Positions 3,236 through 15,384 of a stretch of DNA of 26,813 nucleotides are shown in pieces (the stretch's first letter is position 1; every line of letters begins with the position of its first letter). Origin of the DNA: a virus. The stretch lies in the UHGV virus genome UHGV-0083306. The stretch is one strand, 5' to 3'. Under the pieces are notes generated by a model, which worked only from the letters and a program-made list of their open reading frames with translations, searched no databases and was not told where the DNA came from. The translations under genes were made by a program, and so were the position numbers.

Positions 3236-4731
3236 CATCCAACTCCGCAAGGTATGTTGTAGCTTGAGTAATCAATCTCTTTAGGATCTTTGATGTCTCG
3301 CATCTGTATTGCAAAACGCCTCATCATGTAGCCATAGCGAACAGCAGAAAGGATGTCGTCATTTAGCTTGACGATCTTCCCGTTCTCATCGCGGTGATAC
3401 AGGCGAAACTCTTCAAAGAATGGCTCGCAGGTGTTAAATACCTTGAAACGACCGTCGAGCATCATGTCGCGTATCTCTGCTATCCCGGGTTCGACCGCAT
3501 TACCTCCATCAGGCCATGTTGCATGATCTGGCAACATATCGAACCCAGCGTCGGCGTATTGTTCCTTGAGCTGAGCGCCGCCTCCCTTTTCGTGCTGATG
3601 CCCGTCATGAGGCCAAGCCGTAGGGGTGTTTTTGCTCCATGCTTTAACAGCACTCCATGCCTCTGTCGCCTTCTTCTGTTTGGCCTTCCAGACGCGAGAA
3701 AGATAAATCACGTCCTCGTCTTTATCCCACCAAAGCTGGATGTGTGCCTGTGGGTGATCCCATCCGAAGTCCATTGCATTGATGACGTAGAAGTGATCAG
3801 GACACTCGAACGGCTGACACTTAATAGTCTCTTCCGGTATCTGGAAGATTCGACCACTACCCATCGTAGGAATACCGCGAGCACGCGCCTCTCTCTCATG
3901 CTCAGGATAGGATGCGATGATTTGCTCTTTCTGCTCGTCGGTATAGTGCTCAGCGTCATAGATGGTCATGTTGACCACTTTCTGCGACTTGCTGGGATTC
4001 TTCAGGAACTTGGTAACAACGTCAGACATCCCCATCAGCGGGGTAAACGTCAGAATTGAGAATTGCCCGTATTTGTTGGTACGGGTAAGACCTTCGCCAT
4101 AAATGCTGTATGGTGGCTCTTCGTCAAACCACACGCCGTGGATTGTGTCACCCTGCCAGCGAGCGCGGCCTTGCGAGTATGGTTTGAAGTAGCAGATTGA
4201 AATGCCATCTTCAACGCCATCAGTCGTGTGATGCTTAACCAGAAGATGATCAACAAGGTTCGGAAAGAAAGGAGACTTCTTCCAGCTAATGATGTCCTCT
4301 TTCGGTATTGAACCGTAGCCCGGCTCATCATTCTCTTCAATACGACCGCACAGGATGCGTTGAGTCGTTTTGGTTACCGTCTCGTTTGTCTCGCCGCCAA
4401 TCCAGAAGACAACAGGCTCATAGAAACGCTTACCTTTCCACTCACCGCCATATTTACCATCAGCAGGATAGCCTTTTGTGCCCGGATAACGCCCGGTAAG
4501 GTGAAACGCGACTTCAGCAGCACCAGTAAATGACTTACCAAGCTGGTTACCAGCCATAAAACAGCGCTCTGGATAGTCATGTCCGGCGTCGATGAACTCA
4601 CGCTGTTTGCTGTATGGCGTAAATTCATATAGCAGGTGTGTGTTCCGGTAGTTCTCTTCTTCTTCGAGTAGCTCGAGCAACTCGATTTGCTCTTCGTCGC
4701 TCAGGTTATCAAGAATCGCGTCCAGTTCCAC
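3235..4731 (-). CDS. terminase large subunit (P22 gp2-like)
   Basis: 498-aa ORF; N-terminus [29 protein letters not shown] and overall length match remembered P22 gp2; position between small terminase and portal. Confidence 0.88.
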
Positions 4732-5197
4732 GGTTGAATAGCTCCTTGATACGAGAGCGCCGCTTATCGCGATCTCCCTTATCAGGTGTCACGTCTTCAA
4801 CTTGCGACTGCTCTTTGAGGCCCAAATCACGGGCGATGATGTTAGCGTTGAGAAGGTCAGCGGCTGCGCCAGAGAATTTCTGGTCGTAGATGATGTCTTC
4901 CGCTCGTGATGTGACGTCAGAAAAACCTTCCATTGACCGGAAGGTTCCCCATGTTTGCCTGGTGATATCAAGGAAGGTACACAATCCTGAAATAGTCATG
5001 GCTCGCATCTTAGGGACATTAGCCTTAATTATTTCTCCCTGATATGAAAATACCTTACCCTCCCATAGCGGGTTATCATCAGCCCACTCGAAGTATTCAC
5101 AACAAGCAGCCCACAGCGCCTCAGGCGATTCGAATTTAGGATTTCGCCCATGACTACTGCGGGCCTCCCAAAATCGGTTGCCCTTTGGTGCTGCCAT
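4709..5197 (-). CDS. terminase small subunit (P22 gp3-like)
   Basis: 162-aa ORF starting [40 protein letters not shown], matching remembered P22 gp3; overlaps the start of the large subunit. Confidence 0.85.
4905..4930 (-). other. candidate pac site inside the small-terminase gene
   Basis: Coding-strand GAAGGTTTTTCTGACGTCACATCACG at codons 90-98, resembling the P22 pac sequence, which lies mid-gene 3 in P22. Confidence 0.4.
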
Positions 5198-5814: not shown

Positions 5815-6072
5815 CTACTTCGCTTTTGCTTCCGCTCGCTTACGCCGGCGCTCTTCTTTCCTCTCGGCTTTTGCCATGTCCATGAATGCCTGCATGATCG
5901 AGTTCCGCATCATGTAGCTAACAAAGTGATGATTGACACAGCCGTTGAGGCGCAGCTGCTCGCCAAACTCATCCACCGAGGCCAATGCTTCCATCATGCC
6001 CTTCTCGCCTTTCATGAACTCTGAGAAGTCGCGCCCCGCTCTGGAGGCGCATTCAATGACACGATCACTCAT
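5815..6072 (-). CDS. hypothetical protein (85 aa), basic C-terminus
   Basis: ORF whose ATG overlaps the stop of the upstream KilA-N gene (ATGA), suggesting translational coupling. Confidence 0.45.
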   Translation of the reverse strand: MSDRVIECASRAGRDFSEFMKGEKGMMEALASVDEFGEQLRLNGCVNHHFVSYMMRNSIMQAFMDMAKAERKEERRRKRAEAKAK

Positions 6073-6566
6073 CCCGGAAGCCCGGGGATCGTAATCTGCA
6101 GCTGGTTAGCCAGGGAGTTAATCTCAGCGACCAACACTGGCTTCGTATAGCGCCATGCTGCCAGCCCTTGTCCGCAGAAGCTCGCCATGTCTTTCTTCTG
6201 GTCAAACTCATGACATTTCATGTTGAGCTGCGCACTTAAGCTGTTGCGATGCTGAAGTTCTCCGGTGAAGTAGTCATCGAGGACTTTATAGGCCGCGTAC
6301 TTGAACCCGGGGTTTAACCAAGCCGCATAATCGTAAGCAACAAACTTCCCGCCATATGTTCCACCGTGTACACCGCGCTCAGTAAAAACCACAGATTCGT
6401 GGTTTTTCTCCAGCTCGGCTAAGAACTCTTTGGTCTGCTTGTTTCGCAGGTAGTGGTAAGGCGATTCAGATTCACTTTTACCACTGGCTTTCCACATATC
6501 AGTGAGGCAGATCATGCCATCTTCACCGATACGAATTGGTTGATTGAAGAGGGTTAATGATTTCAT
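6069..6566 (-). CDS. KilA-N domain protein
   Basis: 165-aa ORF with a KilA-N-like N-terminal motif (…GMICLTDMWKASGK…); common in lambdoid prophages. Confidence 0.6.
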   Translation of the reverse strand: MKSLTLFNQPIRIGEDGMICLTDMWKASGKSESESPYHYLRNKQTKEFLAELEKNHESVVFTERGVHGGTYGGKFVAYDYAAWLNPGFKYAAYKVLDDYFTGELQHRNSLSAQLNMKCHEFDQKKDMASFCGQGLAAWRYTKPVLVAEINSLANQLQITIPGLPG

Positions 6567-6704
6567 AGCGTGTACCTACTCTTTGAAATGAACCTTTGCC
6601 GCACAGGAAACCAGCCCACCGAGGCTCGCCAGCACTAACTGGTATCCTCAAAGGCCCATTCCAAAGGGGCAGGTTCGGTGTAAAAAACATGCGTTGCGGT
6701 ACGC

Positions 6705-6740
6705 ATTTATTGGAAAAAGCCCCGCATCGCGAGGCTCATT
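6705..6740 (-). terminator. possible intrinsic terminator downstream of Rz
   Basis: Minus-strand hairpin (GAGCCTCGC GAT GCGGGGCTT) followed by TTTTCC; a palindrome TGCGTTGCGGTACGCA lies beside it. Confidence 0.35.
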
Positions 6741-7678: not shown

Positions 7679-7985
7679 CTTCTACTCCGGCTTTTTTAGC
7701 AGCGAAGCGTTTGATAAGCGAACCTATCGAGTCAGTACCGATGTAGCCGATGAACACGCTCGTTATATAAGCGAGATTGCTACTTAGTCCTGCGAAGTCG
7801 AGAAGGTCACGAATGAACCAGGCGATAATGGCGCACATCGTTGCGTCGATTACTGTTTTTGTAAACGCACCGCCATTATATCTGCCGCGAAGGTACGCCA
7901 TTGCAAACGCAAGGATTGCCCCGATGCCTTGTTCCTTTGCCGCAAGAATGGCGGCTAACAGGTCATGTTTTTCTGGCATCTTCAT
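7662..7985 (-). CDS. S: holin, lambda S-type
   Basis: 107-aa [46 protein letters not shown]… matching lambda S, including the Met1-Lys2-Met3 dual start. Confidence 0.9.
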
Positions 7986-8384
7986 GTCTTACCCCCAATA
8001 AGGGGATTTGCTCTATTTAATTAGGAATAAGGTCGATTACTGATAGAACAAATCCAGGCTACTGTGTTTAGTAATCAGATTTGTTCGTGACCGATATGCA
8101 CGGGCAAAACGGCAGGAGGTTGTTAGCGCAACCTCCTGCCACCCGCGTTCACGAAGGTCATGTGTAGAAGGCCGCAGCGTAACTATCACTGATGAATTCA
8201 GGATAGCCAGTGGCTACGGCTCAGTTTGGGTCGTGCTGTTGCTGGGCGGCGATGACGCCTGTACGCATTTGGTGATCCGGTTCTGCTTCCGGTATTCGCT
8301 TAATTCAGCACAACGGAAAGAGCACTGGCTAACCAGGCTCGCCGACTCTTCACGATTATCGACTCAATGCTCTTACCTGTTGTG

Positions 8385-8452
8385 CAGATATAAAAAATCC
8401 CGAAACCGTTATGCAGGCTCTAACTATTACCTGCGAACTGTTTCGGGATTGC
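8385..8452 (-). terminator. tR'-like intrinsic terminator (end of the 6S-type late leader)
   Basis: Minus-strand AATCCCGAAAC…GGTTTCGGGATTTTTTAT hairpin plus U-run, matching the remembered lambda tR'. Confidence 0.7.
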
Positions 8453-8580
8453 ATTTTGCAGACCTCTCTGCCTGCGATGGTTGGAGTTCCAGACGATACG
8501 TCGAAGTGACCAACTAGGCGGAATCGGTAGTAAGCGCCGCCTCTTTTCATCTCACTACCACAACGAGCGAATTAACCCAT

Positions 8581-9072
8581 CTATCCCATACTGGAGAATT
8601 CACCATGATATTTTATCCTGGCATTTTCCATTGCCTTTCTAGCCTCCTCGATATCGTCAAAACACCCTACATGAATCCTTTTACCATTGACTCTAATTCT
8701 TCCAACCCACTTGTTTGCAGCAGAATTAAAAGTCACCCCCTTCACACCAGATGAATTGTTTTTCCTCATCTTGCTGTTCCATGAGTTTTGAGTGTTAGTA
8801 ACAACACGAAGATTGGCTATCCGGTTATCAGACCTATCACCATTAATATGGTCAATCACATCGGTTGGCCAATCATTGTAAACCATCAGCCATGCAATTC
8901 TATGGACATATAGCCGCATTCCATAAAGTTTTACCTGCAGATATCCATTGGTTTTATAGCCAACAACAGCGCCATAGATAAATCTAGAGGACCGAGGTGG
9001 ATTCTTCCATGTAAGAATTCCAGTATCTGGATTGTAATTAAAAAGTCTCAATGCATCTTCACGTTTTAACAT
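8581..9072 (-). CDS. HNH endonuclease with AP2 domain (homing-endonuclease-like), inserted in the late leader
   Basis: 163-aa ORF with HNH motif DVIDHINGDRSDNRIANLRVVTNTQN and AP2-like C-terminus (SGVKGVTF…KWVGRIRVNGKRIHVGCFDDIEEA); visibly AT-rich; lies between pR' and tR'. Confidence 0.8.
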   Translation of the reverse strand: MLKREDALRLFNYNPDTGILTWKNPPRSSRFIYGAVVGYKTNGYLQVKLYGMRLYVHRIAWLMVYNDWPTDVIDHINGDRSDNRIANLRVVTNTQNSWNSKMRKNNSSGVKGVTFNSAANKWVGRIRVNGKRIHVGCFDDIEEARKAMENARIKYHGEFSSMG

Positions 9073-9272
9073 AGGCGAACCACATAGATATTAGAGCCTG
9101 CTGACATAGAAATATCACCACGAGAGAAGTCGCCAAAAGCGATATTTCTCAGGCTCTATTCCTATGTGCTCTCGAGTTTATGATGCGCATGTCAGTGCGC
9201 TTAGAACTTAAAGATGAGGTGGGTAAAAGCTTAAAGAATGTGAACGGATATAAATCTGCCATTCTTGGGTCA

Positions 9273-9300
9273 AATTTACCCAATTTTATTCAATAAGTCA
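9273..9300 (-). promoter_or_regulatory. pR' late promoter with qut-type initial transcribed region
   Basis: Minus strand: -35 TTGACT (9295-9300), 16-bp spacer, -10 TAAATT (9273-9278), just downstream of the Q stop; AAGAAT -10-like pause element follows. Confidence 0.6.
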
Positions 9301-9343
9301 ATATCATGCCGTTAATATGTTGCCATCCGTGGCAATCATGCTG

Positions 9344-9967
9344 CTAACGTGTGACCGCATTCAAAATGTTGTCTGCGATTGACTCTTCTTTGTGGCATTG
9401 CACCACCAGAGCGTCATACAGCGGCTTAACAGTGCGTGACCAGGTGGGTTGGGTAAGGTTTGGGATTAGCATCGTCACAGCGCGATATGCTGCGCTTGCT
9501 GGCATCCTTGAATAGCCGACGCCTTTGCATCTTCCGCACTCTTTCTCGACAACTCTCCCCCACAGCTCTGTTTTGGCAATATCAACCGCACGGCCTGTAC
9601 CGTGGCAATCTCTGCATCTTGCCCCCGGCGTCGCGGCACTACGGCAATAATCCGCATAAGCGAATGTTGCGAGCACTTGCAGTACCTTTGCCTTAGTATT
9701 TCCTTCAAGCTTTGCCACACCACGGTATTTCCCCGATACCTTGTGTGCAAATTGCATCAGATAGTTGATAGCCTTTTGTTTGTCGTTCTGGCTGAGTTCG
9801 TGCTTACCGCAGAATGCAGCCATACCGAATCCGGCTTGTGATTGCGCCATCCCCATAGCAGCCATCACATCAGTACCGGAAAGAGAGTCAGAAGCCGTGG
9901 CCCGTGGTGAGTCGCTCATCATCGGGCTTTTTGGCGAATGAAATTTAGCTACGCTTTCGAGTCTCAT
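9344..9967 (-). CDS. Q: late antiterminator Q (lambda-type)
   Basis: 207-aa ORF MRLESVAKFHSPKSPMMSDSPRATASDSLSGTDV… with the zinc-finger cysteines (CRDCHGTG…CGRCKG); matches lambda Q. Confidence 0.9.
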   Translation of the reverse strand: MRLESVAKFHSPKSPMMSDSPRATASDSLSGTDVMAAMGMAQSQAGFGMAAFCGKHELSQNDKQKAINYLMQFAHKVSGKYRGVAKLEGNTKAKVLQVLATFAYADYCRSAATPGARCRDCHGTGRAVDIAKTELWGRVVEKECGRCKGVGYSRMPASAAYRAVTMLIPNLTQPTWSRTVKPLYDALVVQCHKEESIADNILNAVTR

Positions 9968-10152
9968 GGCCTTCCCCTTTTTCCCTGTTTGACCATCAGG
10001 ACGCCGTTAACTATTACGTGACGCTCGCCTTTACTGTCTCGGTTGTACTTGAGCACTGTTCCTCTTGCGCAGGAAAGCATCCTTGCCACTTCGGTCTGAT
10101 TGCCTCGTGTCTGGATAAGAAGCTCTGGTATCGTTTGAATTGTGGCGTTCAT
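9964..10152 (-). CDS. ninH: NinH-like protein
   Basis: 62-aa ORF …GNQTEVARMLSCARGTVLKY… similar to lambda NinH (GNQTEVARRLKCSRGTVRKY); directly upstream of Q. Confidence 0.6.
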   Translation of the reverse strand: MNATIQTIPELLIQTRGNQTEVARMLSCARGTVLKYNRDSKGERHVIVNGVLMVKQGKRGRP

Positions 10153-10511
10153 ACGTTCTCCAGTTCGGTGATTTTTATTCCAAGCCGTCCGCCTGGTACT
10201 TTCACACCACGAATTACGCGAATGTCATCGAATTGCTCGTCGTCTTCCGCAAATCCGGCGTGGATAAGGGAGTCGAGTAAACCTTTCAGGATGTTATCGA
10301 GGTCGCGGCGGCGGGAGTCTGGAACGTCTGCGATGACTTTGATGCGGAGTCTTGATTTGGTGAAAATGTCTAACTTGAGTTGGCGGATGATTTGCTGAAC
10401 GTCTTTTCGGTATTTCTGGCCTTTATCGCTGATGTAGTATTGGCTTCCCCGTCTTCGCCAGTAGGTGTTCACCGACGGCGGGTAAGGAAGCACAAACTGA
10501 TATTCGTTCAT
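10149..10511 (-). CDS. rusA: Holliday-junction resolvase RusA
   Basis: 120-aa ORF with RusA motifs (…DVPDSRRRDLDNILKGLLDSLIHAGF…GGRLGIKITEL). Confidence 0.85.
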   Translation of the reverse strand: MNEYQFVLPYPPSVNTYWRRRGSQYYISDKGQKYRKDVQQIIRQLKLDIFTKSRLRIKVIADVPDSRRRDLDNILKGLLDSLIHAGFAEDDEQFDDIRVIRGVKVPGGRLGIKITELENV

Positions 10512-10798
10512 GGCTTAATCTTCCCCTCCTTCAGCAGGATCGCCTGCGTCCTGATCACGCCTTCGAGGTGATAAAGTCTGGCGTCTTTGTTGTCGAGATT
10601 ATGGGTGCGTCGGTCGATCTCCGCGTGGCAGTCACTACAAGCCCATGCACCGATCAGGTCGTCAGGCTTCATTCCCGTTCCGCAAATTCCAGCCATCCGG
10701 TAATGCGCCAGAACTGTAGTTTCAGGATTGCCATTGCATACGCCGTAAATACGTACCTGGCATTCTCTGCCACGTGCTTCTTTGCGTAGATTAGCCAT
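10508..10798 (-). CDS. YbcO-like protein (DUF1364, putative nuclease)
   Basis: 96-aa ORF MANLRKEARGRECQVRIYGVCNGNPETTVLAH…CSDCHAEIDRRTH, similar to E. coli prophage YbcO. Confidence 0.6.
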   Translation of the reverse strand: MANLRKEARGRECQVRIYGVCNGNPETTVLAHYRMAGICGTGMKPDDLIGAWACSDCHAEIDRRTHNLDNKDARLYHLEGVIRTQAILLKEGKIKP

Positions 10799-11003
10799 TT
10801 ACCTTCCCTCGCAATTGAAGAATTGACTGAAGGTCTTTTTTAATAAATATGCGAGTGCGAATTGAGCAGTAGTTTTCCTTCATTCTGGCGTAGTAATAGT
10901 CCTTTCTTTGCTTAAGTTTGTTGGCATCCGCTGTCATCCAGTCTTTTACAGCAAACTTAATTAACCAGCGGTAACAGAGATACCATTTCAGGTAATCACT
11001 CAT
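10791..11003 (-). CDS. hypothetical protein (70 aa), AT-rich
   Basis: ORF whose start overlaps the NinF stop; no recognisable motif. Confidence 0.4.
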   Translation of the reverse strand: MSDYLKWYLCYRWLIKFAVKDWMTADANKLKQRKDYYYARMKENYCSIRTRIFIKKDLQSILQLRGKVNG

Positions 11004-11166
11004 CGTCTTCTTCCTCGTACATTGAGCTATTCGGATCGCTCATCAGTTCTGCGCAGCAGTGCTCACACACGTGAACTTCCAGCACATGCAGCTTCTGACC
11101 GCAGTTAGCGCACGTTAAAGCTCGCTCGACGCTTTCTTGTTCGTAACTTCGATTTGGGTCAATCAC
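10996..11166 (-). CDS. ninF: NinF-like protein
   Basis: 56-aa ORF (GTG start) [47 protein letters not shown]…; below the 60-aa cutoff of the ORF track; SD GAGG upstream. Confidence 0.6.
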
Positions 11167-11345
11167 CTTGTTTTCCTCGCACGTTCTCTAAGCCACCGGA
11201 TATCCCACAGGTGAGCCGTGTAGTTGAAGGTTTTTACGTCAGATTCTTTTGGGATTGGCTTGCGTTTATTTCTGGAGCGTTTCGTTGGAAGGTATTTGCA
11301 GTTTTCACAGATGATGTCGGTGAAACTTCGTCGCTGTCTCGCCAT
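11163..11345 (-). CDS. ninE: NinE-like protein
   Basis: 60-aa [55 protein letters not shown]…; strong SD AGGAGG upstream. Confidence 0.55.
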
Positions 11346-11481
11346 ACGTCCTCCTTTTCCTGCGGTAGTGGTAAAACTCCTGTTGGTGTTCTTTCACACC
11401 GGAGACACCATCGATTCCAGTAAGGTTAATTTGGTCTGAAGCGGTTATCTTCTTTGCATTCACCGCACCGATCACATCGCA

Positions 11482-11903
11482 TCATGCAGCCCGATCTCCC
11501 CATCTCGCTTTCCACTCCAGAGCCAGTCGCGCTTCGTCTGACCACTTAACGCCACGCTCTGTACCGAATGCCTGTATAAGCTCTAATAACTCCGCAAATT
11601 CGCTTACACGCATCCTGCTGGTTGACTGGCCTATTACCACAAGCCATTCCCGGCAAGGTTAGGAACAACGTCCTGCTGCTTTAATGCTGCGGTAAACACA
11701 CACTTCCAGCTTTCTGCATCCAGCCAGCGACCATGCCATTCAACCTGACGAGAGACGTCACCAAGGCAAGCCCAAAGCTTTCGATTCTGGTCTAAGCTGC
11801 GGTTGCGCTGCTTAAACTCGACAATGATGTCTAAATCGCATGTCCTAAGATACTGAATGGCGTTATATCTTATAGATTCATTAGTAAGGTGTATTTGACA
11901 CAT
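11482..11903 (-). pseudogene. ninB: ninB (orf) 3' portion, frameshifted
   Basis: 11903-11634 encodes NinB-like …QRNRSLDQNRKLWACLGDVSRQVEWHGRWLDAESWKCVFTAALKQQDVVPNLAGNG then stops; the rest ([52 protein letters not shown]) continues in the -1 frame from 11640 to a stop at 11482-11484. Confidence 0.65.
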
Positions 11904-11909
11904 TTCATT

Positions 11910-12497
11910 TTAATACCTCGCAAATTCGCCGAAACATTCATCCGCTTTATTTGCATATACTTTATGAGCTTCCTTTGGGTCATCGTAAAACCCAAGATTA
12001 ACTTTCCTCTTGTTGATTACGATTTGCGCCCTCCATTTTCTTGATTTCTTATCCCATGAAACGCCTTTATATCCTGATTTGTTATTTGCCTTTTTGTTTA
12101 CGTTTTGGATGTTTTGAGATCGAGTTGCCAATCTAAGATTTGCTATACGATTGTCATCCCTAACGAGATTTATGTGGTCGATATCACTTTTTGGTAGACT
12201 GCCATTCATATAGAGCCACGCCAGCCTGTGTGCCTTATAAAGTTTTCCATCGACTTTTATTACCCAGTAGCCTTCGCTACTCTTATGCCCTGCGATATCC
12301 CCAGCATTCATTCTCTGGCATTTCTTTACTTTCCATGTGAATTTCCCTGTTAACTCATCGTAGAGAAGGACTTCTTTAAGTCTCTGCTGAGTTATTTGAT
12401 TGATTGGTTTGGTTGGGTCTGGAAGAATTTGCTGTATCGCGTGAATAACGTTTTGCTGATGAATGGGGCTTCTTAGTTCAAACGTTAGTTTCCTCAT
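11910..12497 (-). CDS. HNH-AP2 endonuclease fused in-frame to the first ~33 codons of ninB
   Basis: 195-aa ORF: residues 1-33 MRKLTFELRSPIHQQNVIHAIQQILPDPTKPI match the NinB N-terminus; the rest carries HNH (DIDHINLVRDDNRIANLRLATRSQN) and AP2 (SGYKGVSWDKKSRKWRAQIVINKRKVNLGFYDDPKEA); paralog of the 8581-9072 gene. Confidence 0.75.
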   Translation of the reverse strand: MRKLTFELRSPIHQQNVIHAIQQILPDPTKPINQITQQRLKEVLLYDELTGKFTWKVKKCQRMNAGDIAGHKSSEGYWVIKVDGKLYKAHRLAWLYMNGSLPKSDIDHINLVRDDNRIANLRLATRSQNIQNVNKKANNKSGYKGVSWDKKSRKWRAQIVINKRKVNLGFYDDPKEAHKVYANKADECFGEFARY

Positions 12498-13503: not shown

Positions 13504-15384
13504 TTAATACTCCGTCACGTTTTCCTGTCGCCACGCCTCGTCATATTCCGATTTCGGCATATTGGCGATGTAGCTATATGGCGATCCTGATTCAAGTTGC
13601 AGGAACTGGTGCGATTGCTCGTCAAGGAACAACGGGACACCACCTTCCCAACCTTCGCCGTTACGTTGCTTTTCAAGCATCAAAACAGATGCCGGAGATG
13701 CCAGTAGCTGTTCGTCCTTCTCTGACATCCTTTCACCACTCTGAACTCTCTGTAACGCTCTCTCGCGAGCCTTGTTACGCCAGATGATAAAAAGGTTGTC
13801 TGTCAGGTCTGTTATCGCTCCAGAGCCTTTTACGTCCATTTTACCGGTTGGTTTTTCTTCGCTGTCTCCTTTTCTGGAGTGAGTAACGAGAATGACGTGG
13901 GAGTTTGTTTTGTTTTTGAAGTCACAAATCGAGTCAACAAATGCTTTCTGCCCGTTATAGTCATCGTCACCTATGCCGCATTTCATCAGGCTGTCGATGA
14001 TGAATAACTGGATGCCGTATCGGCGGCGAGCGTAGTCGAATATTTCGATCAGCCTGTCGGCTTTCGCCGTTCCGGTCAGGCCAAACACCCAGAGTCTTTC
14101 GTCATAAAATTTAAATGCAGAGTCAATTTCCAGCACTGGCGGCATCTTGCAGCACGTTGCCTGACGGGTAAGTCGCTTAAGGAGAATACCAGGCTTCAGC
14201 TCAAGTGACGCGATGCACGTCTTCACACCCTGACGCATTGCCTCAAGTGCCATATGCCCGACAACCTCCGTTTTTCCGTGACCGTTCACACCATTGACCA
14301 GCGTCAACTCTGCCTCACGGAACTGGAATTTATCTGCCAGAGATTCCCACGGTGGATTAAACAGATACTGCTGCTTGCCGTAGAAAGCGTTGATAGTGTC
14401 CTGGTAAAACTCTCGCGCGCTGTAGAGTTCTTCAGGGTCGAAGTAGGATGCCGTGCCGATGTACTGCCAGATTTCATCCTCGGTAACACCGTTCATCAGG
14501 CATTCGTTGATGTCTTTGTACGGCAGAGTAACAAGACGGCAACGATGTTCACCGAGTCGGCTTGCGATTTCCCTTGCGGCTTCACGACCAACATCATCAA
14601 CGTCCATCGAGATGAATATTTCCTCAAACCTGTCGAGGTTGTGATACTCAAACTCAATCCACTGTTGCTTAGCGCCTTTTCCTCCACCAAACGGCACGGA
14701 TAACGCCGAGATGCCGTATTGCGCATAGCTCATACAATCAATTTCGCCTTCGCAAAGCACAACCGCCCTCACGCCAGCGTCCAGAGCCTGCCATCCGAAC
14801 AGACAAGGTTCACAATCACCTTCTGCCATAATGACTTTCTTCCCGTCCGGGCGCTCAGTGCTGATTCGCTTGACCTGCAACAACTCACCATCGCGTTTGT
14901 ACGGAAGCACCAGTGCATCAAGTTCTCGTTCTCCATTCCACACCTTGCCGCTGACAACCTCGTAGCGCTTTACGACTTCTGGCGATATGCCACGCGATTG
15001 CAGGTACTCAAGATGGGATTCTGTTCTGGTAACGTAGCGGGCTATTTTCTTGCGATCAGGTCTGGAGAATTTCTTCTCACGTTTGGCATCGAAATGGTGA
15101 TCGTCATCCTTGATACCGAGAAATGCTTTCGCTTCCTGCATAGCCTGATGCAGGTTAATTCCACGACATTCCATCCACAAATCAAGCATGTCACCGCCGT
15201 CTCCCTCAGCGAAATCAGCCCATTTTTTCTTGCCGCTAAGATTGACCTTAAGGCTGTTTCCCTTGTCACCGTTGACGTTACCGGCAACCCACTCATGCCC
15301 CTCTTTCTTGCCGTTTGGCAACAGGTGCGGAGCCACCCTGTCAACCTGCGCCCAAAGCAGGTCGCTGAGTTCACTTGGCCTCAT
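13504..15384 (-). CDS. bifunctional DNA primase / replicative helicase
   Basis: 626-aa ORF: TOPRIM-like motif (VVLCEGEIDCMSYAQYG), then Walker A (NGVNGHGKT) and Walker B-like (LFIIDSLMKCG) of a DnaB/RecA-fold helicase. Confidence 0.8.
   Translation of the reverse strand: MRPSELSDLLWAQVDRVAPHLLPNGKKEGHEWVAGNVNGDKGNSLKVNLSGKKKWADFAEGDGGDMLDLWMECRGINLHQAMQEAKAFLGIKDDDHHFDAKREKKFSRPDRKKIARYVTRTESHLEYLQSRGISPEVVKRYEVVSGKVWNGERELDALVLPYKRDGELLQVKRISTERPDGKKVIMAEGDCEPCLFGWQALDAGVRAVVLCEGEIDCMSYAQYGISALSVPFGGGKGAKQQWIEFEYHNLDRFEEIFISMDVDDVGREAAREIASRLGEHRCRLVTLPYKDINECLMNGVTEDEIWQYIGTASYFDPEELYSAREFYQDTINAFYGKQQYLFNPPWESLADKFQFREAELTLVNGVNGHGKTEVVGHMALEAMRQGVKTCIASLELKPGILLKRLTRQATCCKMPPVLEIDSAFKFYDERLWVFGLTGTAKADRLIEIFDYARRRYGIQLFIIDSLMKCGIGDDDYNGQKAFVDSICDFKNKTNSHVILVTHSRKGDSEEKPTGKMDVKGSGAITDLTDNLFIIWRNKARERALQRVQSGERMSEKDEQLLASPASVLMLEKQRNGEGWEGGVPLFLDEQSHQFLQLESGSPYSYIANMPKSEYDEAWRQENVTEY

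Follow-up and report, generated by a model that had tools for sequence, protein, structure and literature searches.

The virus genome UHGV-0083306, a stretch of 26,813 nucleotides (nt) referred to at its full length as the window, is that of a lambdoid phage with HK97-, HK022- and mEp043-like nin and late regions, both on the minus strand. Two genes in these regions, HNH1 and HNH2, encode proteins with an HNH nuclease domain and an AP2 domain. HNH1 is inserted at the late promoter pR', and HNH2 lies within the coding sequence of ninB. The interest of the two insertions lies in the architecture at ninB and in a structured leader RNA upstream of HNH1, and not in the endonucleases themselves. The two open reading frames (ORFs) are:

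8581-9072, minus strand: HNH1, 163 amino acids, HNH_3 and AP2 domains; the stop codon TAG (8581-8583) abuts the right junction of the insert
11910-12497, minus strand: HNH2 fusion ORF, 195 amino acids, HNH_3 and AP2 domains

The HNH1 and HNH2 proteins

A preliminary description of the window, made from the sequence alone, reported two paralogous HNH-AP2 genes of roughly 40% identity by eye. Both ORFs are indeed present on the minus strand, each with an HNH_3 domain, and 59/149 residues are identical (40%; BLASTP, E=5e-34), which is not background level. The conserved blocks quoted in that description are present approximately, 'AHR.AWL' reading VHRIAWL in the first protein and 'G.FDD' reading GFYDD in the second. 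Residues 1-32 of the HNH2 ORF are the N-terminus of NinB and not endonuclease, hence the endonuclease part of HNH2 is also about 163 amino acids in length. The Pfam HNH_3 profile scores 61.5 bits for HNH1 and 60.9 bits for HNH2 against a cut-off of 24.8, with 44-45 of its 46 positions covered. The AP2 profile scores 33.6 bits for HNH1, just over the cut-off of 33.3, and 29.4 bits for HNH2, under the cut-off. PHROG 99, annotated as HNH endonuclease, takes in both proteins. Their fold is similar to that of a solved HNH homing endonuclease, and the AP2 region consists of a three-stranded sheet and a helix, like plant AP2/ERF domains. H57, D74, H75, N77, N83, N87 and N99 (HNH1 numbering) are invariant in an alignment of 32 sequences that includes both window proteins, and the conserved histidines and asparagines are putative catalytic or metal-binding residues of the beta-beta-alpha-metal motif. 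Site-specific nicking or cleavage is predicted for both proteins.

HNH1 and HNH2 are ordinary members of a known family of selfish nucleases that is very common in phages. Matches to this family occur in about 3,800 phage records, with up to five places per record among the records listed, and the best matches to either gene in the phage collection are 44-51% identical and come from virulent siphoviruses and myoviruses. One or two HNH_3 genes are also found in other lambdoid nin regions. Within the window, tblastn with both proteins finds just HNH1 and HNH2, which are clean insertions, with defined junctions, relative to lambda and HK022. Neither gene stands beside terminase or portal genes in the manner of HK97 gp74, the sites being the Q-S interval and ninB; adjacency alone was examined here, with no family profile run.

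Insertion of HNH2 within ninB

The ninB locus is composed of four segments on the minus strand:

12402-12497, minus strand: resident ninB start and codons 1-32, in frame with HNH2 (HK022 alignment; phmmer)
11910-12401, minus strand: HNH2 core, 163 amino acids, HNH_3 and AP2, read through from the ninB start
11808-11908, minus strand: replacement ninB 5' end (ninB'), homologous to the usual ninB codons 1-39 and highly divergent
11482-11807, minus strand: ordinary 3' part of ninB, with about 97% identity to HK022

Alignment to HK022 ninB shows that the insertion is precise, and the N-terminus of the HNH2 product matches residues 1-41 of lambda NinB (PDB 1PC6; phmmer, E=5.7e-13). The 195-amino-acid fusion ORF is intact in 15/15 loci, the instances having been collected from E. 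coli, Salmonella and IMG/VR. The HNH2 stop codon, TAA, is followed after 1 nt by the ATG of the ninB' frame, which has a Shine-Dalgarno sequence, GAGG, 8 nt upstream, within the last HNH2 codons. In relatives this frame encodes MKCVKYHLTNESIRYNAIQYLRTCDLDIIVEFKQ, joined to ordinary NinB at RNRSLDQ, and the product of 141-142 amino acids is annotated as NinB by NCBI. The ninB' N-terminus aligns to NinB N-termini, with the invariant N16, the nearly invariant A17 and I18 kept, and is otherwise very divergent. This divergent segment is present in exactly the eight E. coli genomes that have HNH2 and in no others.

The ninB' frame is intact (134-142 amino acids) in all 13 of the other loci where it is complete. 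In the window, 1 nt is deleted between 11892 and 11891, where the frame is rescued by an alternative ATG at 11903, and TTT is reduced to TT at 11642-11641, resulting in ORFs at 11634-11903 and 11482-11640 and in truncation of NinB at residue 89. Both deletions are private to the window (0/14 related loci), and they represent either sequencing errors or gene decay.

The left junction, CCAATC followed directly by AATCAA (CCAATC then AATCAAATAACT), is identical in 15/15 HNH2 loci. In the same loci the allele of the 96-nt ninB stub varies, being either lambda-type or HK022-type, and the upstream genes are unrelated. The pairwise diversity upstream is 0.36-0.66; it is 0.142 and then 0.051 along the stub, and 0-0.026 in the element; on the 3' side it is 0.11-0.16 in the ninB 3' part and 0.37-0.49 beyond ninB. 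In round figures, the element stands at about 0.01 and its ninB flanks at about 0.14. This pattern fits homing, and is the signature of one nearly clonal element entering many ninB backgrounds, with co-conversion near the junction. In a relative of HNH2 with 69% identity (P0237), the NinB N-terminus fused at this position is a different one, of Cronobacter-like type, and the start-capture design is therefore considered to be old.

In E. coli AVS0578 (L003, 2562-3149), the NCBI pipeline PGAP splits NinB(1-32)-HNH2 into a 161-amino-acid HNH endonuclease and a 'partial HNH endonuclease' pseudogene; an uninterrupted 195-amino-acid ORF is also held by this genome. The nin regions of E. coli prophages L006-L009 have one or two additional HNH_3 genes, in some cases combined with AP2 or NUMOD4. 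Next to these genes is a further mosaic ninB allele, whose N-terminus is divergent (P0018). It looks as if ninB is targeted by homing endonucleases repeatedly.

Insertion of HNH1 at the late promoter

The features of the pR' locus, identified by promoter scan and by alignment to lambda, are:

8581-9258, minus strand: whole HNH1 insert, about 678 base pairs relative to lambda, comprising leader, structured RNA and ORF
9261-9301, minus strand: lambda-type pR' and qut region, with -35 TTGACT (9301-9296), -10 TAAATT (9278-9273), TTGACC (9273-9268) and -10-like AAGAAT (9266-9261)
8390-8580, minus strand: lambda-type 6S leader remnant, from lambda +5 (ATGGGTTAATTC) to tR', now 3' of HNH1
8356-8550, minus strand: orf-64
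8407-8390, minus strand: T-run of the tR' terminator

The insert is bounded by ATGG on the left (9262-9259) and on the right (8580-8577), and the flanking sequence is collinear with lambda by BLASTN (window 7900-8581 with lambda 45271-44590, and window 9259-9500 with lambda 44594-44353). Lambda TTGACTCAACGATGGGTTAATT has been turned into TTGAC[C/T]CAAGAATGG, then the insert, then ATGGGTTAATT, and the junctions are the same in 17/17 other loci. HNH1 is thus inserted at about +5 of pR', upstream of tR', the +1 and the pause-element positions being those presumed for lambda pR'. The lambda-type Q gene and the -35/-10 hexamers of pR' are kept. The first bases of the element, AAGAAT, stand where lambda has AACGAT, taken here to be the -10-like hexamer that induces the sigma-dependent pause, and keep A at position 2 and T at position 6. 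From pR' to the HNH1 ORF the sense strand showed no terminator-like site, in a crude scan that missed lambda tR' too.

A Q gene lies 248-272 nt upstream of each of the four closest relatives of HNH1, which are 86, 74, 66 and 62% identical to it; the 62% relative comes from Xenorhabdus bovienii. A holin gene follows the relative wherever the contig reaches far enough. In the three of these contigs with a family on record, Q belongs to the Antiterm family (PF03589) and not to the lambda Q family. Diversity is 0-0.026 in the HNH1 element, 0.01-0.066 in the Q gene and low in the 6S leader, rising only beyond tR'; the homing signature of HNH1 is weaker than that of HNH2, because the whole Q-pR'-6S module is conserved.

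Among the 17 other loci, HNH1 has a frameshift in two and an in-frame deletion to 54 amino acids in another two, a decay that is as expected for selfish homing endonuclease genes. At these loci (L051/L059, IMG/VR 2684622670_000001 and 2690315922_000002; L055/L070) the leader RNA is intact throughout; the 54-amino-acid form is an internal-deletion protein without the HNH domain, and the frameshift falls after residue 40. The AAGAAT leader also occurs without HNH1 in three E. coli genomes. In RMDEC465 (L043, 2458-2569) and FDAARGOS_943 (L044, 2465-2569), lambda-type Q and pR' are followed by the first ~143 nt of the leader of HNH1, which run directly into the tail of tR'. This 'type-B leader' was considered as an ancestral empty site, but the HNH1-less loci are better explained as deletions between TAGAGCCTG of the HNH1 leader and TAGAGCCTG of lambda tR', which would remove HNH1, most of the 6S leader and the 5' arm of the tR' hairpin.

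A double-pseudoknot leader RNA

The 5' untranslated region of HNH1 contains a motif of ~120 nt with two pseudoknots (PK-A and PK-B), and the window holds two copies of it:

9081-9200, minus strand: leader RNA copy A (RNAalifold, covariation and covariance model), ending 9 nt before the HNH1 ATG
9200-9185 and 9168-9081, minus strand: helices of copy A, namely the P1 hairpin and the interrupted hairpin P2-P4
9174-9169 with 9126-9121, minus strand: PK-A of copy A
9195-9190 (P1 loop) with 9106-9101 (bulge), minus strand: PK-B of copy A
6563-6724, minus strand: leader RNA copy B, divergent, with all six helices (covariance model, 26.9 bits, E=2e-5, filters off)
6069-6566, minus strand: gene with KilA-N and ORF11CD3 domains (Pfam), just downstream of Rz, its ATG (6566) at the end of copy B

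In the aligned Q-to-HNH intergenic regions of HNH1 relatives, conservation over the ~130 nt preceding the start codon exceeds that of the protein, and RNAalifold predicts a small hairpin followed by a long interrupted hairpin. The single-sequence fold of copy A has a z-score of -3.1. In PK-B the P1 loop complements a 7-nt bulge, and in PK-A a stretch 5' of the long hairpin complements its apical loop. Standard pairs are present in 97.3% of cells across 18 distinct sequences, against 93.9 +/- 0.4 in shuffles, of which 0/500 reach the observed value; seven pairs have compensatory changes on both sides, and pairing falls to 30-49% when one strand is slid. All six helices are found at equivalent positions, with differing sequences, in 9/9 divergent representatives. 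PK-B occurs as CUGACA:UGUCAG, CUGACG:CGUCAG, UCUCAC:GUGAGA, UCGCA:UGCGA and CCGCA:UGCGG, and PK-A in seven variants. The covariance model recovers copy A at 9065-9218 with 152 bits, and G-U pairs on the sense strand point to an RNA that would be read in the gene direction. Across the whole window no Rfam 15 family matches the leader at the gathering threshold, the sole hit at E<=5 being a chance match to a long non-coding RNA (E=3.2). A sigma-70 promoter within the leader was also considered and rejected, no convincing conserved -35/-10 pair being seen by eye in the aligned leaders. The 3' strand of the basal helix overlaps the Shine-Dalgarno region, and it is for this reason that gating of cargo translation is proposed; the best guess, by inference only, is that the leader gates translation of, or is a processing site for, potentially toxic cargo.

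The leader is not confined to HNH1. Ahead of copy B lies a terminator-like hairpin that has a T-run (6735-6714), and nt 51-169 of a 171-nt query that takes in copy B are 95% identical to the sequence upstream of rha (ORF201) in P22; near-identical copy B leaders are present upstream of kilA in Stx phages. A pattern scan of IMG/VR and of the GTDB representative genomes yielded 25 and 20 stretches, respectively, and the 20 all come from Xenorhabdus, where a genome has as many as three. With a relaxed hairpin pattern, 73 stretches were obtained from metagenomes, of which three are true homologues by the covariance model and the others unrelated hairpins. The covariance model also detects the leader in front of the Rha genes of E. 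coli prophages (53-67 bits), of P22 rha (28 bits) and of a homing endonuclease gene of Klebsiella phage RothD (37 bits). The cargo ORF starts 19-22 nt past the scanned pattern, which is ~9-12 nt past the end of the basal helix, and its product varies between HNH-AP2, P22_AR_N+ORF11CD3, Rha and Acb2/Tad1-hairpin proteins. The Xenorhabdus cassette is flanked by the endolysin and Rz genes, with a terminator-like hairpin ahead of it.

Three individual loci are of note. In Xenorhabdus beddingii (L085, 1189-1255) the cargo is an 80-amino-acid protein in which Pfam finds an Acb2/Tad1 hairpin domain (E=4e-14). It is a candidate sponge of the anti-CBASS or anti-Thoeris kind, and the leader may mark anti-defence genes too. 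In P22 (AF217253; L170, 1151-1317) the start annotated for ORF201 (rha), locus position 1246, is internal to the predicted leader RNA. An ATG at 1315-1317 closes the motif, and the true rha start may be 69 nt further downstream. In RothD (L169, 1446-2104) the homing endonuclease gene, with a copy-B-form leader before it, is situated between Q (with tRNAs) and the holin gene, and the pairing of the leader with homing endonucleases in the Q-to-holin slot is therefore seen again beyond E. coli.

The leader RNA, which has no Rfam family, extends even to classic phages (P22 and the Stx phages), where it precedes rha and kilA-type genes. Neither the RNA nor either of the two architectures turned up in searches of the literature on lambdoid homing endonucleases, ninB-HNH and rha/IHF, and the leader appears to be new to description. 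If it is true that the leader controls toxic late cargo, it would be a new regulatory element in some of the most thoroughly studied phages and a handle for finding accessory and anti-defence genes.

Origin, proposed mechanism and alternative explanations

The 90% cluster of HNH1 contains 131 sequences, with relatives at 86, 74, 66, 62 and 56% identity, and the cluster of the HNH2 core contains 592 sequences, with one relative at 69% and more than 100 at 45-59%. Copies with >98% DNA identity are present in 16/5,426 complete E. coli genomes for the HNH1 insert and in 8/5,426 for the HNH2 insert, and in 17 and 12 IMG/VR contigs, respectively. No record among the 5,426 E. coli genomes or the IMG/VR contigs holds both. 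Closer relatives elsewhere for each gene and the disjoint distributions support independent invasions by two lineages of free-standing HNH-AP2 genes, and not duplicates. Repeated invasion was one of two routes offered in the preliminary description for the two distinct insertions, and it accords with the 40% mutual identity as well; the other route, intragenomic spread, finds no support in identity, relatives or distribution. The sites had also been called unusual. Each is, however, the habitual site of its own lineage, HNH1 after Q and HNH2 in ninB, and multiple HNH-AP2 genes per phage are common. A comparison of the flanks for a shared target motif had been suggested, and both do hold GAC[C/T]CAA, which is judged not significant: the distance to the junction differs (1-5 nt in lambda TTGACTCAACG, directly before ATGG, against 10 nt in ninB CAGACCCAAC...CCAATC, directly before the element), and a 7-mer common to two 40-nt windows is estimated to arise by chance about one time in five.

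The explanation that is considered best, and which is probably correct, is that two independent lineages of HNH-AP2 homing genes are present, one specialised on ninB and the other on the late-operon leader after Q. Each insert is present or absent at a precise site (HNH1 relative to lambda, HNH2 relative to HK022), with junctions identical in 17 and 15 loci, respectively; a uniform element within variable flanks, with a gradient of co-conversion, is evident for HNH2 and weak for HNH1. What is observed is the architecture with its junctions, the distributions and diversity profiles, the protein folds and the covariation of the RNA; nuclease activity, target sites, homing, the pattern of expression and the function of the RNA are inferred.

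Each protein would combine an I-HmuI-like His-Me nuclease domain with an AP2 DNA-binding domain. Placed after ninB codon 32, the HNH2 element (12401-11808) would use the ninB ribosome-binding site and start to give a NinB(1-32)-HNH fusion, expressed from the delayed-early nin transcript through the ninB translation signals. HNH2 would then nick or cut a ninB that lacks the homing endonuclease gene, near codons 32-39, a stretch that is destroyed or replaced by the insertion, and repair would copy the element with the 96-nt ninB 5' fragment and the ninB 3' part as arms. The Shine-Dalgarno sequence and divergent 5' end carried by the element would allow full-length NinB still to be encoded. HNH1 would be transcribed from the constitutive pR', with transcription ending at tR', with or without Q, and its translation would be gated by the double-pseudoknot leader RNA. 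HNH1 presumably targets the lambda-type +1 region, which its insertion breaks; in addition, or as an alternative, it may be moved as one cargo gene among several that stand behind the leader. The ninB element would represent a way for a homing endonuclease to occupy a coding gene without an intron or intein, by taking its start signals and supplying a new front end. Such a design explains puzzling 'pseudo' or fused prophage annotations, such as the partial 'HNH endonuclease' of PGAP, and predicts a testable target in ninB.

Copying of one HNH-AP2 gene to a second site within this phage, with subsequent divergence, would account for the shared architecture, the same strand and the distance of 3 kb between HNH1 and HNH2. 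It is nevertheless highly improbable, as the two are 40% identical to each other, against up to 86% for an HNH1 relative and 69% for a relative of the HNH2 core (in addition to the more than 100 at 45-59%); each insert is found >98% identical in other prophages that do not have the other insert, and each lineage has held its own site over long divergence. Equally little credence is given to HNH2 being encoded by a group I intron or an intein that is spliced out of ninB, the possibility raised by a position within a coding gene and in frame with the upstream exon. No Rfam intron family matches, at gathering or at E<=5, and the HNH2 ORF has a stop, with a new start 1 nt later that has its own Shine-Dalgarno sequence. 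Beyond the endonuclease coding sequence, just ~100 nt of the 594-nt element are left, which encode the replacement ninB N-terminus, and a full-length NinB' is obtainable without splicing. An intron or intein was likewise rejected for either insert, both ORFs having stop codons and Pfam giving HNH_3 and AP2 only.

The alternative that HNH1 is interchangeable cargo of a late cassette defined by the leader RNA, exchanged by homologous or illegitimate recombination and not by its own nuclease, is tentative and rather unlikely. The same leader precedes HNH-AP2, P22_AR_N/ORF11CD3, Rha and Acb2/Tad1-like genes in Xenorhabdus prophages, Rha or KilA-N genes in E. coli, P22 and Stx phages, and the RothD homing endonuclease gene, and leaders that are 95% identical head different genes in P22 and in the window. 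However, a close copy-A leader is found in E. coli genomes only with HNH1 or in apparent deletion derivatives, the HNH1 clade stays after Q across a range of 62-86% protein identity, and the HNH1 nuclease motif is intact. The two ideas are compatible, as the leader could be a homology arm for the homing endonuclease gene. Domestication of the nucleases to serve the phage, for example in excluding competing lambdoid phages from the lysogen or in DNA packaging, is improbable. HNH1 lies between the constitutive pR' and tR', so that expression from the prophage may be possible, and in HK97-like phages HNH genes next to terminase are needed for cos cleavage. Neither gene adjoins packaging genes here, however, the gp3-like small terminase being at 4709-5197; both are rare and polymorphic for presence and absence (16 and 8 of 5,426 genomes), and decayed copies of HNH1 exist, which is typical of selfish elements.

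Several points weigh against the explanation of two homing lineages. The AP2 score of HNH2 is under the Pfam cut-off (29.4 against 33.3 bits), and the conserved Q-pR'-6S module (0.01-0.07) makes the contrast between the HNH1 element and its flanks weak. Recognition sites are placed solely by the insertion breakpoints, and the predicted cleavage and homing are extrapolated from sequence. ninB' is frameshifted twice in the window, and the kept host function holds for its relatives, not necessarily for this phage. A terminator in the HNH1 leader may have gone undetected in the crude scan, and the leader heads unrelated cargo, such that HNH1 could move as a cassette by ordinary recombination.

The chances are put at about even for a wider reading, in which the leader is an undescribed class of cis-acting RNA that heads interchangeable, often toxic or selfish, late cargo (HNH homing endonucleases, Rha, KilA-N, P22_AR_N antirepressor-like proteins and an Acb2/Tad1-like anti-defence protein) in lambdoid phages of Escherichia, Salmonella (with the P22 rha leader), Klebsiella and Xenorhabdus. 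The RNA would gate translation of the cargo or act as a processing site, and could serve as a homology arm by which cargo genes, those for homing endonucleases included, are exchanged. The same reading takes in the ninB element, in that homing endonuclease genes of lambdoid phages would carry repair parts for the function that they interrupt.

Genome context

The remaining features of the window are:

13504-15384, minus strand: primase/helicase gene, followed in order by small genes, ninB, ninE/F-like genes, a DUF1364 gene, rusA, ninH and then Q
9344-9967, minus strand: lambda-type Q
7985-6768, minus strand: lambda-type S, R and Rz, followed by accessory and packaging genes
4709-5197: gp3-like small terminase gene

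Megablast gives mosaic matches of 96-98% identity to mEp043, HK022, HK97 and lambda, and no phage record covers both HNH regions together.

Comparison with known systems

HNH1 occupies the same Q-to-holin interval as the cargo slot (stx, tRNAs) of Stx phages, within a lambda-type pR'-6S-tR' arrangement in which Q and the pR' -35/-10 are of the lambda type. The stx genes lie downstream of tR'. HNH1 differs in being upstream of tR', from about +5, with AACGAT changed to AAGAAT. In the atp6 gene of Allomyces, a mobile endonuclease ORF reportedly travels with a foreign end of its target gene, leaving the resident end as a remnant. HNH2 resembles this reported case in that the endonuclease gene brings a terminus of the target gene, and differs in that the terminus is a 5' end, the gene a phage gene and the nuclease HNH, as opposed to a 3' end, a mitochondrial gene and GIY-YIG.

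I-HmuI of Bacillus phage SPO1 (PDB 1U3E) is an HNH nicking homing endonuclease whose gene lies inside a group I intron; its C-terminal part is a helix-turn-helix. The genes of the window have no intron, and have an AP2 domain in place of the helix-turn-helix. The HNH-AP2 homing family (Magnani et al. 2004, as cited in PMC10448857) includes the 'IPA-HNH' genes of vibriophage ICP1, and multiple HNH-AP2 genes are present in Xanthomonas phage Xop411 (PMC2248197). HNH1 and HNH2 are like this family in having an N-terminal HNH and a C-terminal AP2 domain and in being free-standing, often multicopy and at boundaries of genetic exchange. The family examples are mostly from virulent phages and lie between genes, whereas HNH2 captures the start of its target gene and HNH1 is in the Q-dependent late leader of a temperate phage.

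The free-standing Seg and Mob endonucleases of T4-like phages undergo 'intronless homing' (PMC2988022), and HNH2 shares with them polymorphism at a fixed site, co-conversion of flanks and a resistant variant of the target beside the endonuclease gene. The T4 genes are intergenic, whereas HNH2 is within a coding sequence and is translated from the start of the host gene. The Orf-HNH fusions of PMC4118853 are different from ninB-HNH2, having DUF968 and a C-terminal HNH on a full Orf domain. In Aeromonas phage Aeh1 an insertion of mobE splits nrdA, and function is kept by assembly of the two gene fragments (PMC3045599), while the 'ShiLan' HNH is hidden in a mycobacteriophage methylase gene and read through as an in-frame loop (PMC11855218). 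As with HNH2, an HNH homing gene is located in a coding gene with no intron or intein and with host function apparently kept. HNH2 is unlike both in that a 32-codon stub is fused to the endonuclease itself and a complete substitute 5' end is supplied, NinB' being a single polypeptide. Start capture with a replacement 5' end at ninB is thus a new variant beside Aeh1 mobE/nrdA and ShiLan.

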